Shown here piece after piece: positions 17,399-35,784 of a stretch of DNA of 64,000 nucleotides. The position numbers and the translations under genes are program-made. The notes below the pieces were generated by a model. That model was not told where the DNA came from. It worked only from the letters and a program-made list of their open reading frames with translations, and ran no database searches. Source of the stretch: Azolla caroliniana (Eukaryota > Plantae > Polypodiophyta); contig JBHGNT010000018.1 of NCBI GenBank assembly GCA_043228905.1, positions 15,872,001 to 15,936,000 of the forward strand, in the 5' to 3' direction. Within the stretch, counting starts at the first letter, position 1. Each line of letters begins with the position of its first letter.

Positions 17399-18035
17399 TG
17401 TTGAGAGACAAGCTCAACATTGGGTGCATAACCCAATGCGTAGACTGGGTGCGTAAAACATATGCACAATATGGTCGTAGCGGTGTGTAAACTGAGAGGC
17501 CGTTGGAATGTTATTCCTCGTAAGGAATAATTTTGTGAGTAAGCGTAGGATGCTCATTATGAGCGGTCAAGTACTGTAAGTACTTGTGTTAGCCCAATAG
17601 TCAGGGCTTGTATAAAAGGTGCTCATTGAGCACGAAGTGTATATAGAGTGTTATCTTTTCTCGTATAGAATTGTCTTTCTGCTCTCTCTGTGTCTCCCTC
17701 TCCTTCTCTGTGATTTCTGCATTTTACCCAACTGTCGTAATTCCGAACCATGTACTCTGTGTCTTACGCGTATGCTTCCGCACACGTATTCTTTGACATG
17801 GTATCAGAGCGCGAGGGTTGAGACTCCTCTACAACCGACAGAAAAGGTTGCGATAAAGATATAGTTAAGTTATTGCTTTCGGAAAGGATAAGACAGCAAT
17901 ATGGACAGAGGAATGGGAAGCTCGCTACCGACTAAGAAGCTCGACAGGAGCAACTACGCATCTTGGTCGTACAAGAAGCTCGCTACCTGCTTGGTCATGG
18001 TTACTGGAGTTATGTTGAAGGAGCTAATGATACAA
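17399..18035 (+). mobile_element. 5' end of a copia family E element (LTR 17399-17798, Met-PBS, gag start)
   Basis: TGTTG..TGACA ends. TGGTATCAGAGC at 17799-17810. MDRGMGSSLPTKKLDRSNYASWSYK is homologous to 39565-39810. Confidence 0.85.
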
Positions 18036-19018
18036 TGTCAGGGTCAAAGTTAGGAACGAGTTTTAAAATGAAGAAGAGAATGAGACGCGAAAGATATGAG
18101 AGAGATAAGAAGAATTTGATAATGTATTAACAATGAGAGAAATGTTTACAAGAATATGCCGAAGACTGGCATTGAACCAGAATGGTTCATCAATAGTCAA
18201 ATACATGTTTATATAGCATGGTTTGGATACATGCATGCTCGCCACCTCCTAGGCACGCATGATCGCCACTTGGCATTCATGCAAGCATGCCCCTTGGCAA
18301 TCATGCATTAGCCTATGCAAGGTGGCGACATTTCAATAATGTTATTATATGTATTTCCTATTGATATAATAGAATTTATTATTTAATATATATAATATGA
18401 TGTATCCTGATGGATGGGGTTGTATGCTTTCTTTGAGAAGATCATGGGTTCGAATCACCATAAACCTTATTGGGTTTTGTATACACATGACACCATCCCT
18501 CTCCTTTGATGACGAGTTCCACGAGTCGTAATGCATGAATTCGGACTTGGCTTATCTGGATATTGGCGATGAAATTCAGCCACCAAGTTAGAGGCATTAT
18601 CAAGGTTCTCAACTGGCTCCAAGTACGATCATTTGGTGTATATCCTAACCAATCCACGAGATAATAAAGCTTTTTACATATTATCTTGGAGTCCAAAATA
18701 GCTTTGATTTCAAAATTTGGGCCATCAACAAGTTGAACTGGAGGTGGGGGTAGAACAACCCGATTTGGAATGGAACTACCAATGTAGGGTTCCAACAATG
18801 AGACATGAAATACCAGATGTAGATGCATTTGTGGAGGTAGATCAAGGCGGAATGCAACATCATTAATCTGATTGGAGATAATAAATGGACCAAGTCGTTG
18901 ATAATCGAGCTTGTCACAAGGTCTAGTAGTCTTCACATTACGTCGTATTAATCATACACAATCCCCAATTTGAAACTTCGGTTCCTTTGGTGAAGAGTCG
19001 AGACGGTGACGATTTGCG
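18036..19018 (-). mobile_element. 3' end of chromovirus CV1 (integrase C-terminus, chromodomain, PPT, 3' LTR 18036-18492)
   Basis: ORF 18442-18936: KLDYQRLGPF, VFHVSLLEPY, FEIKAILDSK..YLVDWLGY..TW. PPT AAAGGAGAGGGATGG. LTR with TGTCA/TGACA ends. Confidence 0.92.
18396..18478 (+). promoter_or_regulatory. tRNA-like Pol III type-2 cassette in CV1 LTR U3, antisense to the element
   Basis: A-box-like TATCCTGATGG at 18403 and B-box GGTTCGAATC at 18447 (44 nt apart). TTTT at 18475-18478. AT-rich sequence upstream. Confidence 0.55.
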
Positions 19019-20364
19019 GCACACAATAGGAGGATGGCCTGCATTGCATCTTCAAGGGGAACATAGTTGTTGCAAGCTGATTCACATACCCCATGAATGT
19101 GCTGATGTGTTCAACTACGCTTTCCCTGTCCCTGTATTTTAGCCTCATGGTCTTCTCATCAAGGATGTTTTGTTAAGGGCATTCTTCCTCTCATATAAGT
19201 GACAGCTTCTGCCCCATCTCATAGGCATTTGTGTTGTTCGACACATGTTGGAGGACACTTATATTGATGCATTGTTGGATGGTGGCAACAGCCTTTCTGT
19301 TAAGAAGTTTCCATTCCGACTATAATACCCCTGTGGGTATTTCTACTCTGTCGATTGGCTCGTACAAGTCTTCTTCCTCTCATATAAGCGACATCTTCTA
19401 CTACATCTCGTAGGCATTTGTGTCATTCGACACATGTTGGAGGACACTTACAGTGACGCATTGTCGGATGGTGGCAATAGCCTTTCTGTTAAGAAGTTTC
19501 CATTCCGACTCTAACACCCCCGTGGGTATTTCTGCTTTGTCGATTTGCTTGTACAGGACTTTGTCTATGAGAAGGTTATCCATCTTTATCTTCCAGTCGC
19601 ATAGTTCTGAGAGTTTAGAACTATAATGCCTGGGAAGCCGCTCACACCTCCTTCCATCTTCAACCAAGCTCTGATACCAGTTGGGATTCGTTCATTTCCG
19701 ATTCTGAGAAAGACCGACTGTGTAATTGACAATATCGTGGAAAAACAGAAACACACCAAATACACAAAATACACAATTTTACGTGGAAACCCTAAATGGG
19801 GAAAAACCACAGGAGAACAAATCTTCACTATACAATAGATATACAAGACAACGAGGTTACAACACTCTCTCTCGAAAGAGTGTAACAACATCACAGGTCT
19901 CTTCACGTCTAAGCTCATACAACTATGGCATCGTTCACTCTCGCTCCTACACACTCTCTTCTCTGTCACACTCTAGCAACAGGGGCTAACAACTATTATG
20001 TTCTATGCTCTCTCTCTTTCTCTATACAACTTTGTTTGCCCTAAGTGTATTTATAATTATACATTGAATGGGCTATTTACAAATGTAGTCACTGCTATTG
20101 TTATTCCTATTATAACGATAATAGTTAATCAACCGACTGGTCAACAAGTCAATTTGACTAGCCGACCCCTATGTCGATTGTCTCGTCGGCCTGACTGGTC
20201 GTCCTTATCTTCGACCATCTAGTCGGCCTGAATAGACGGTCATGTCTTCGACCTGGATCACTTTGTATATTGTCAACTCTCCATGTCGACTCCCCTTTGT
20301 CTTCAAATGTCGCTTCTCGGCCTGACTAGTCATCTCCTCACATAGCAGGGACATATCCCTAATA
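19019..20364 (-). mobile_element. 5' LTR (~19680-20364), Met-PBS and gag 5' half of a copia family A element, probably the missing 5' part of A1
   Basis: GCTCTGATACCA at 19668-19679. LTR is the reverse complement of 15437-15930. gag stops ~20 nt before the point where A1 begins at 3781. Confidence 0.85.
19183..19561. repeat. Tandem duplication of ~189 bp within gag
   Basis: TCTTCCTCTCATATAAG starts at both 19183 and 19372, and the following sequence is duplicated. Confidence 0.85.
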
Positions 20365-21566
20365 GATTTTGATGTCATCAACCTTCCGTGGCCCGGGTTG
20401 CTACTCGGATTTTCCATCTATGCCTCGTGTTGATTAGCCACTTCCCTTTGTTGTAGAAATCTCAAAGATCTGGGGTCGATCAATGCGACGACCAATTCCT
20501 TCACTTCTCCGATCCGGACCGGAGTCTCCATTGTAGCCCTCGCCCAGTGCGGCCGCATGTAGTGACTATCAATATAATCTTCTTCTCTTGCCACTTCGTC
20601 GAGTGTGCCGCTTTTACGTTGACCAATTTCTCATTTTCTAACTCCATCTAGCTTCTGCTTCACCAGGTCGATAATTGTATCGTGGAATTCTTTCTTGGAA
20701 ATGCCCAATACTTCTCACAATGTGAATTCCACCTACTATTGAGGATTCACTCCTCTAAGTCCTTCTGTAGGTTTGCCGACAGTCACTTCTCTATTTCTGA
20801 GCTCAATGGGAAGCTCATAAACTTTCCCTTTGCCTTCTCCTGTGGGTCAGCCAGACCACCATCACCCTTTTTCAACCCGCTTTGGGTCACGCACCTGCCC
20901 GAAGGTCCTGCCCCTCCAGCCTTACCGACCTGCTTGTCTTCAACTAGAACTTTGTAGTTCCAGCACGCAGCTTCCATAAAATTGGTCTTCTCCTCCACTA
21001 GGTCGTTCCACCCGGTGACCTCCTGGACCCGTCTCTCTACGCGGTCCGCCTCTTCCTTACTTAGCTTCTTTCTGGAGAAGCCCTCTAACACCACCAACCA
21101 AAATATGGTGTTGTTTCTTGTCCTGGCGCTCTTACCTACTCCAACCTCGATATCAATCGACGCTGAGTAATGGATGGCCTCTACATGTCACGCCACCACC
21201 TCCTCCATTATCCTCTTCATTCCACCCCGACTGGTGTTCATTTCTAGGGGCCTCCTCATCTCACTGGCATGTACTTGGCCATTCCCGAGATAGACGACAT
21301 TATTCTTCAGCTCCTCGGTGAAGTCGGTGCAGTCCCTTCGAATGTGGTTGATATTGTCGCACCACATGCACCTAAGGCCATTAGGCAGGCGTCGGTCACG
21401 AGATTGACCCCCACCATCCCTCTGGGCCTGAGCAATCTAGAGGTCATGCACCATCTTTGTGAGCTCCTCCAGCGATGCACCTCTTGACGATCCCACGACT
21501 ACATTGGTCGGAACTAGGCCCGACTCGACCCACCTTCTCGCCTCGTCTGACCGAGTCAGCACCTCC
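20365..21566 (-). pseudogene. gag: gag-protease fragment of non-chromovirus Ty3/gypsy element G2 (DUF4100-type gag)
   Basis: Minus-strand translation gives RCMWCDNINHIRRDC (zinc knuckle), VQEVTGWNDLVE and HWARATMETPVRIGEVKELVVALID (protease start). Confidence 0.6.
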
Positions 21567-21719
21567 TATCAGGAATAGTACACCGATTTGGTTCGAAACA
21601 ATGCCTTGTGCCTCCTTTTATTGTGTTCTCCTGAAGTTGCTAGAATGTTCTTGAGAGATCTATAATATACATCAATTTTCTATAGTAAAACTTAAATGAA
21701 AATAATATCCTTCTTATTA

Positions 21720-21790
21720 CAACATATAGTCTAATGGACAAGAGCTCGACCCATGTAACATAAGGTCATGGGTTCAAGTCTTACCATATC
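21720..21790 (+). promoter_or_regulatory. tRNA-like Pol III A/B-box cassette in CV2 3' LTR, antisense to the element
   Basis: TAGTCTAATGG at 21727 and GGTTCAAGTC at 21771 (44-nt spacing). Confidence 0.6.
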
Positions 21791-22030
21791 ATGACACTAT
21801 CTCCCCTTTAAAACGACGAGTGTCAAGAGCCGTTTTGGATTGAGGACCTGGTTTGTCTCGATATTGATGATGGAAGTCTTCAAGAAGAGCACGAGCATTG
21901 GTCACATTCTCTATTGGTTCCCAAGTATGCTCGTTGGGACTATATCCTAGCCAATCAACTAAATAGTAGAGCTTGTTGCGAACAATCTTGGAATCGAGGA
22001 TGGCGGCAACCTTGTACTCAGGTCTATCGT

Positions 22031-22420
22031 CAAGTTCGATTGGGGGTGGAGTTTGTTTAATACGACCTGGGATGGTGCTATCTTGATAGGGTTCGAGGAG
22101 AGAACTATGAAACACCGGATACACTATCTTCAAGTTCGATTGGGGTTGGAGGTTGTTTAATACGACCTGGGATGGTGCTATCTTGATAGGGTTCGAGGAG
22201 AGAACTATGAAACACCGGATACACTATCTTCAAGTTCGATTGGGGGTGGAGGTTGTTTAATACGACCTGGGATGGTGCTATCTTGATAGGGTACGAGGAG
22301 AGAACTATGAAACACCGGATACACTATCTTCAAGTTCGATTGGGGGTGGAGGTTGTTTAATACGACCTGGGATGGTGCTATCTTGATAGGGTTCGAGGAG
22401 AGAACTATGAAACACCGGAT
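22031..22420. repeat. Tandem array of a 100-bp unit, ~3.9 copies, in the integrase-chromodomain linker
   Basis: CAAGTTCGAT starts at 22031, 22131, 22231 and 22331. Confidence 0.95.
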
Positions 22421-23578
22421 GTATCCGAAGTTGTGGAGGTAGATCGAGACGAAAAGCGACATCATTAATTTTTCCGATAATACGGAAAGGACCTAATCAC
22501 CGATAATCCAACTTCTTGCATGGGTGAGTAGTCTTGATGTGTCGTCATAGTAGCCATACCCAATCTCCAATGTTAAAACTGGATGGAAGCCGATGACGAT
22601 CCGCATAAACCTAATGTTTTTGTTGAGCTTGTTGTCGATGAGTAGATAAATCTACTTGTATCTTGCGTAACCACTCCAAACGATCCTCTACGCAAGGATT
22701 TGTGGGTAACTCTGGGGTTTCAAATACACAGCATCGGGGCTGACAGCCCGTATAAGCATAAAATGGTGTAGCCTTTGTCGATGAGTAGACAGTTATTATA
22801 TGCAAATTCGGCGAAGTGGAGAATATCCACCCAATCATCTTGATGATAGCTTAGAAAGCACCGAAGATACTACTGCAATGTTTGATTTGTTCTTTCTGTT
22901 TGCAGGTGGTAGCCGGAGGAGAGGTTACACGTGACCTTGAGCATTTTAAAAAGGTGCTTCCAGAATTTCGAGATGAACTAGGGTCGACAATCACTGATGA
23001 TACTATCAAGAAGGCCATGATGCCAACATACTTCACGCATGCCAGTTTCGGTGGTTTCTTCACTGGAGATTTCCTTAGTACATGGCAGGAAATGGGTCAT
23101 CTTCATATATCGATCTACTACTATTAAGATCGCATCGAATCCCTTAGAGACTAGAAGATTTGTGATGAAATCTAGAGCAATGCATTGCCACGGCTTGCTT
23201 GGAATTGGTAATGGTTCTAATAAACCATATGGATGATGCCTTGGCATTTTTGCTCTGCAACATGTATCACAAGTCCAAACAAAATCTTCAACAAATTGTC
23301 GCATATGGGGCCACCAGAATGATCGTTGTACTAAATCTAATGTTTTAGTTTTATCAAAATGCCCAGATGTATATGTGTCATGATAGGTTTGGACTACTCG
23401 AAGGCGACAAGAACCATTAGAAACATACAAGCGTTTCTTAAAGAATAGTAATCCATCATGACATTCAAATTGTCGATAGTCCGTACCTGGTTGTTGGGAC
23501 TGTGAACAAGATGCTCGAGAGGGATCAATTTGTGCTAGAATGTCTTGGGCGAAAGCATCTGTCTTCAAGTCCTCACAT

Positions 23579-35704: not shown

Positions 35705-35775
35705 CAACATATAGTCTAATAGTCAAGAGCTCGACCCATGAAACATAAGGTCATGGGTTCGAGTCTTTCCATAAT
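35705..35775 (+). promoter_or_regulatory. tRNA-like Pol III A/B-box cassette in CV2 5' LTR, pointing out of the element
   Basis: TAGTCTAATAG at 35712 and GGTTCGAGTC at 35756 (44-nt spacing). Confidence 0.6.
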
Positions 35776-35784
35776 ATCATGACA

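Follow-up and report, generated by a model that had tools for sequence, protein, structure and literature searches.

Backward-facing tRNA-type A/B-box cassettes in the LTRs of coding Gypsy retrotransposons of Azolla caroliniana

Here, we report that coding retrotransposons from at least three Gypsy groups carry in their LTRs a backward-facing cassette of tRNA-type A and B boxes, a feature that is real and wider than a preliminary description of one copy had stated, and whose function is predicted from its sequence. In the reading we prefer, to which we give somewhat less than an even chance, this tRNA-derived module may act as TFIIIC-binding DNA that supports the Pol II promoter of the LTR, and not via a conserved 80-nt RNA.

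All positions refer to the window, i.e., the whole 64-kb stretch of DNA that was analysed. Within it, 18036-19020 is the remnant of a 5'-truncated chromovirus copy of a family named CV1. On the minus strand, this remnant comprises a 457-bp 3' LTR (18036-18492, TGTCA...TGACA) that is 95% identical to both LTRs of a full-length copy with a 5-bp target site duplication (L034), a polypurine tract (PPT; 18493-18507) identical in family copies, and an integrase SH3 and chromodomain tail (18530-18978; identified by tblastn, and in family copy L017 by Pfam PF24626 and PF00385) that is interrupted near 18616-18619 by a stop and a frameshift. As the preliminary description had it, the cassette lies antisense in the U3 of this 3' LTR, with the box motifs TATCCTGATGG at 18403 and GGTTCGAATC at 18447 placed 44 nt apart and a TTTT run (T4) at 18475-18478. 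On the plus strand, the A box (T8...GG) covers 18403-18413, the B box covers 18447-18456, and G53 is 45 nt from T8, the range in short-arm host tRNAs being 43-46. tRNA positions 44-47 (18439-18442), which the scoring matrix leaves out, read AGAT in this copy versus AGGT in 23 of 27 representative cassettes. An A/T-rich flank upstream of the cassette (18356-18395, plus strand) is the presumed TFIIIB site. The TATA box of the LTR Pol II promoter (18209-18215, minus strand) is divergent to the cassette, 188 nt from T8, and is followed after 32 nt by a 5' R sequence (18172-18183, minus strand) that is complementary to the primer binding site (PBS) of full-length copies and suggests self-priming of the Tf1 type.

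Two LTRs of a second chromovirus family in the window, CV2, contain equally spaced cassettes on the plus strand, at 21727-21780 (3' LTR, 5' end at 21796) and 35712-35765 (LTR 5' end at 35784). CV1 and CV2 are 65% identical in protein, and their LTRs can be aligned only at the flank of the B box and at the self-priming R sequence. The earlier claim that only boxes and spacing are shared was too narrow, as the LTRs of both families also have in common the 12-mer AGGTCATGGGTT (tRNA positions 44-55). Elsewhere in the window, a 100-nt tandem repeat of approximately four copies (22024-22420, 97-98% identity) has arisen within the CV2 integrase tail, and an internal deletion in a CV2 LTR has brought its R start directly against its 3' end (21570-21582). 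The region 38000-64000 contains nested Copia-type elements and 54-nt tandem repeats, none with a cassette.

The scoring matrix was derived from 19 tRNAs found in this assembly, among them organelle-type tRNAs, and does not include the AGGT positions. A B box alone is at chance level in the window (three occurrences versus 2.47 expected). The A+B composite of the flagged LTR scores 20.5 when the A box is read at 18408, a value equalled by one of 300 shuffles of a stretch that took in 19 flanking bases. In a scan of the whole window, scores of 26.8 and 24.8 were obtained for the two CV2 copies and 14.9 for the flagged copy, and shuffled windows average 3.3 matches at 14 or above. Genome-wide, a strict form of the pattern (TRGYYYARYGG-N30-38-GGTTCRANYC) yields 4,332 matches versus none in a reversed control. 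Since the window score of the flagged copy is at shuffled level, the case is carried by family data. Among 30 CV1 copies, it is the sole carrier of A14>G (18409) and of G46>A (18441); with substitutions at two near-invariant positions it is a poor candidate for activity and is a decayed member of its family.

The CV1 family is multi-copy, and 40 candidates were scored in this genome; L034 scores 20.1 at a spacing of 45 nt. Full-length copies measure 5.7-6.5 kb, encode RT/RNase H and have paired LTRs of 96-99% identity. Their 5-bp target site duplications were exact in two of three checked copies and had one mismatch in the third. A chromodomain (PF00385, E 4.6e-11) is found on the integrase C-terminus of L017. 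The PBS region has no tRNA-type PBS and finds its complement at the R start, 32 nt past the TATA box, which is the criterion for self-priming (Neumann 2019, PMC6317226, in the accessible text). On the chromodomain and predicted self-priming alone, CV1 would fit the Tcn1 clade, which has been found in mosses and club-mosses (PMC6317226) and is described, as far as the accessible texts go, with the same chromodomain, predicted self-priming, ~450-bp LTR and 5-bp duplication (PMC6317226; Novikova 2010, PMC2864245). The idea that the cassette is the element's own primer was ruled out, as the CV1 PBS matches the R start rather than the cassette. In one copy (L002, C1:24087763-24088829), a 164-nt unit over the chromodomain end, PPT and LTR start is repeated several times.

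Seven chromovirus families of this genome contain the cassette, and so does one non-chromovirus Gypsy lineage. A Pfam chromodomain search, in which 150 of 6,462 candidates were scored and 90 retrieved, gave further families that have it antisense at the start of U3, as in CV1 and CV2, with family scores of 36.7 (CV3), 36.2 (CV4), 33.4 (CV8), 24.1 (CV2), 17.5 (CV5) and 15.0 (CV6); the A-B spacing in CV5 is 52 nt, and the cassette of CV7 (L125 and L167) is degenerate. CV5 is present in many near-identical copies with open frames of 1,199 aa. Within the first 25 nt of its LTR (L101-type), the B box forms part of a perfect 7-bp hairpin with the LTR terminus.

The strict pattern does not match CV1 itself. 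Among the first 100 matches listed for it, five were tRNA-Arg genes as judged by eye. Thirty of the 4,332 matches were retrieved and classified by their flanks as 13 chromovirus LTRs, 14 members of another repeat group, two tRNA genes and one unclassified sequence; 27 of these 30 had LTR-type flanks running on upstream, and no free SINE was found among them. As a Copia-type control, 15 distinct Met-PBS sites were examined over the 500 nt upstream, a distance that covers long LTRs in part; 14 had no cassette, and the one match (L233) was an adjacent CV2 cassette for which the locus had been chosen. Host tRNA genes themselves form single-isotype tandem arrays (Lys, Ile, Arg and Trp; L067, L084, L085, C8 17.80-17.82 Mb and C16 4.99-5.11 Mb), and the tRNA-Lys(TTT) arrays include variants with a GTT anticodon.

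The 14 matches outside the chromoviruses belong to a Gypsy lineage with paired LTRs of 0.9-1.2 kb (examples L317, L319 and L322). Its domain order is RT-RH-INT, Pfam found no chromodomain, its PBS matches the 3' end of host tRNA-Trp, and its RT is 24-27% identical to that of CV1. Like those of the chromoviruses, its cassettes are antisense in U3. L319 (C1 ~17.17 Mb), a young element (LTRs 99.8% identical), has three cassettes: two are antisense and in tandem, and the third is a sense A/B cassette ~75 nt past the TATA box. A separate U3 motif, GCCAARTGGC(G/A), is present in both CV1 and the non-chromovirus LTRs, amid CATGCA-rich repeats and 60-85 nt before the TATA box (window 18254-18274, minus strand; position 856 of the L317 LTR; position 348 of the L319 LTR); it hints at exchange of promoter modules or at a shared transcription-factor site.

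To extend the survey beyond this genome, metagenomes were scanned by integrase/chromodomain alignment, and the best 80 of 445 loci were taken; 59 had an LTR start, and 21 were dropped for want of an LTR start or of sufficient flank. LTR starts were called by a regular expression, and a few are doubtful (L254, L264 and L280). Of 42 protein-picked chromoviruses from related hosts, an assembly series that shares these families, 32 score at least 10 antisense and none reaches 10 on the sense strand (maximum 8.5); none of 17 chromoviruses from other metagenomes carries the cassette. These rows include near-duplicates and are related rather than independent. The T8-G53 distance is 44-46 in 29 of the 32 carriers within a search window of 38-56, so that the boxes stand at tRNA spacing. 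The other ten related-host loci score below 10 and include the closest relative of CV1 (L299, 5.8), which together with the degenerate CV7 indicates that the cassette can be lost. In trees that cover the retrieved loci (L310 was left out as too short), carriers fall into two clades, supported at 96/89 and 100/99, within which weak or absent rows are scattered. The two can join as one clade with support 86, a value at which a single origin for both is neither shown nor rejected.

What is conserved was examined in 27 de-duplicated representatives. T8, A14, the A-box GG, A44-G45-G46-T47, G52-C56, A58 and C61 are kept in 78-100% of them, and AGGT at positions 44-47, exact in 23 of 27, is exact in 6 of 17 host tRNAs. 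Mean pairwise identity is 0.63 in the A box, 0.82 at positions 44-48 and 0.81 in the B box, versus 0.32-0.36 in spacer, tail and flanks. As the box matrix served both to select and to anchor these representatives, the conservation of the boxes is partly circular; AGGT and the count of 32 of 42 are exempt. We infer purifying selection in replicating lineages; the earlier suggestion of selection on boxes and spacing is supported, over far more families than the two for which it was made. Within CV1, core positions are no better conserved than the remaining LTR (16 of 510 mismatches, 3.1%, versus 2.9-4.2%) in a comparison whose copies were the top BLAST matches; this is expected of copies that decay after insertion, and gives selection no support either.

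The same data bear on the notion that the cassette is a neutral relic of an old SINE or tRNA insertion, passed among families by descent and LTR exchange. The lack of extra conservation of the core within CV1, the occurrence of losses, the possible union of the two carrier clades and the shared U3 motif with its hint of exchange would all agree with such a history. However, neutral decay would be expected to erode all positions equally, and here the boxes, AGGT and the 44-46 spacing persist while spacer and flanks are at the background of 0.32-0.36; a neutral relic is therefore already disfavoured, and we regard it as very improbable.

The conservation does not extend to tRNA shape. In the tRNA register, covariation of no stem in the 27 representatives exceeds permutation (values as high in 239, 100, 426 and 177 of 500 permutations for the acceptor, D, anticodon and T stems); off-register, the acceptor stem shifted by +1 was reached by 7 of 500, one of 20 stem/shift tests. 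Folding of the 83-nt CV1 strand is no more stable than that of shuffled versions (z +0.81), 157 of 200 of which did as well. Of the two stems proposed earlier for this copy, ATGG/CCAT forms in the minimum free energy structure and TCCT/GGGG does not. ARAGORN reports no tRNA in the window, and the Rfam tRNA model has no match at E<=10 across 17500-22500. CV4 is the sole family that keeps a full 7-bp acceptor stem, and it reaches 25.2 bits on the Rfam tRNA model, whose gathering cut-off is 29; both features support a tRNA ancestry, and we infer that the module derives from a tRNA or from the head of a tRNA-derived SINE. A functional tRNA (RF00005) is ruled out by ARAGORN, by Rfam, by the position of CV4 below the gathering cut-off and by the lack of covariation.

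It might still be asked whether the cassette is a Pol III gene with a functional RNA product, be it the ~80-nt RNA of the preliminary description or a tRNA-like or small-RNA precursor comparable to those of foamy-virus LTRs. The tRNA-exact spacing, the A/T-rich upstream flank and the acceptor stem and Rfam score of CV4 speak for it, and AGGT at 44-47 could be a tertiary feature of an RNA. T4 is kept in 28 of 30 CV1 copies, so that this family may make an 83-nt RNA, and it is kept also in a sister family (L300). It is not general: within tRNA position 100, T4 is present in just 8 of the 27 representatives, and in two it lies between the boxes. Together with the absence of any stem above permutation, this leaves the ~80-nt RNA of the preliminary description unsupported as a conserved product. 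In addition, the B box of CV5 stops within a few bases of the LTR end. Assembled RNA contigs of one run, which cannot show strand, ends or level, include two on the CV5 LTR and none on 17900-22000, and speak neither for nor against an RNA; a search of runs with a CV5 query gave five, all of assembled contigs and none containing half of the query words. On balance, a role for the RNA seems unlikely.

Most families have a TATA-like box on the opposite strand, at a distance of 113-206 nt from T8 (188 nt in CV1) and pointing away from the cassette, and the flank between the two is 79% A+T (mean of the 27 representatives). The TATA expression, which is loose in A/T-rich DNA, has no match in a few LTRs (e.g., L242, L261 and L311). 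In L317, 743 nt separate the cassette from the LTR edge and 181 nt separate it from the TATA box, and the inner cassette of L319 is 178 nt from its TATA box. The L317 distances indicate that the cassette tracks the promoter and not the LTR end, and an edge insulator tied to that end is weakened as an explanation by a cassette 743 nt inside.

Motifs and spacing that are kept, an RNA shape and terminator that are not, and a promoter-tied position fit an element that binds TFIIIC/TFIIIB and acts on the LTR Pol II promoter. TFIIIC is predicted to bind the A and B boxes and to position TFIIIB on the A/T-rich flank, toward the TATA box; once assembled, such a complex would phase nucleosomes or form a barrier, which might keep the Pol II promoter usable within repeat-rich chromatin, and any Pol III RNA from the cassette would be a by-product. 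Yeast tDNA and ETC elements are the proposed model, as TFIIIC-bound DNA that affects adjoining Pol II promoters and chromatin. According to the accessible text of a paper on such complexes (PMC4228148), TFIIIC/Pol III complexes have product-independent effects on nucleosome phasing, barriers and insulation, and they also inhibit nearby Pol II promoters, so that the sign of the effect on the promoter is not fixed. The yeast elements are fixed chromosomal sites, whereas the predicted plant sites are mobile within LTRs and present in thousands of copies.

The module could instead restrain its carrier, if assembly of a Pol III complex, or antisense transcription that runs on from the 3' LTR into PPT and integrase sequence, dampened Pol II output or fed siRNA and thereby limited harm to the host. 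The antisense orientation, the absence in most families of a terminator before the LTR end and the yeast silencing of Pol II promoters adjacent to tRNA genes (PMC4228148, accessible part) are in line with this possibility. A self-silencer, on the other hand, would be expected to be lost through mutation, and the cassette is present in the youngest and most amplified families, such as CV5; we consider restraint quite unlikely. It is extremely improbable that the cassette serves Pol III-targeting retroelements as a landing pad or decoy, which would leave selection on the carrier unexplained: in the 120 nt that precede the A box, an interruption by foreign DNA was found in three of 97 aligned LTR copies (101 loci tried, four without alignment), at -31, -54 and -60, with no common site.

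Several known systems resemble this one in part. In Helenus/TRIMp3, tRNA-like sequence is likewise found inside the LTR; as given in the accessible text of Kojima 2024 (PMC10886601), it is conserved around the A and B boxes with tRNA structure mostly lost, and one family is from a lycophyte. Those elements are non-autonomous, measure 311-1,263 bp, and their boxes are proposed to drive their own transcription. The elements described here are different from such short, non-coding TRIMs in that they are 5-8 kb long, encode gag-pol and possess a TATA box, to which the cassette is antisense and divergent. Kojima argues that the autonomous partners use Pol II LTRs that are unlike TRIMp3 LTRs. The same text notes a resemblance to part of a tRNA in 'not a few' Repbase LTRs and pursues TRIMs alone, which suggests that Repbase may contain autonomous cases that have gone unnoticed. 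A Pol III promoter has also been captured in the LTR of Cassandra and Ajax TRIMs, but it is 5S-derived, the elements are non-autonomous, and it transcribes the element (PMC10886601, accessible text). The miRNA cassettes of foamy-virus LTRs are, as here, A/B units in the U3 of an autonomous reverse-transcribing element; their product, a hairpin RNA with terminator, was shown experimentally (PMC3993851, accessible text), whereas neither structure nor terminator is conserved here. The terms 'B box' and 'polymerase III' do not occur in the accessible text of Novikova 2010 (PMC2864245), and no autonomous carrier of such a cassette is mentioned in the accessible portions of that paper, PMC9033089, PMC13570524 and PMC12859917. 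A/B boxes in autonomous plant Gypsy LTRs were not found described in searches of the full-text literature, and Repbase, supplements and subscription papers may hold such descriptions.

Pol III promoters in plant LTRs have so far been described for small non-coding TRIMs, which need them for their own transcription, and a conserved antisense cassette in full-length coding elements points to a different use. If our preferred reading is true, the cassette would be a mobile element of chromatin and promoter support, and retrotransposons would have a route to activity in silenced regions. A bolder version, which we find possible but doubtful, is that, in this plant group, deeply diverged Gypsy lineages arrived by convergence or by exchange at a portable module of tDNA type, which would recruit TFIIIC/TFIIIB back-to-back with the Pol II promoter and so license transcription in silent chromatin; retrotransposons would then supply most of the tRNA-type promoter sites of the genome, in the thousands, and shape its chromatin boundaries. 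LTR cassettes may also inflate the annotation of tRNAs and SINEs in such genomes. As thousands of candidate TFIIIC sites, they would offer a natural setting in which tDNA-type barrier activity can be tested in plants.
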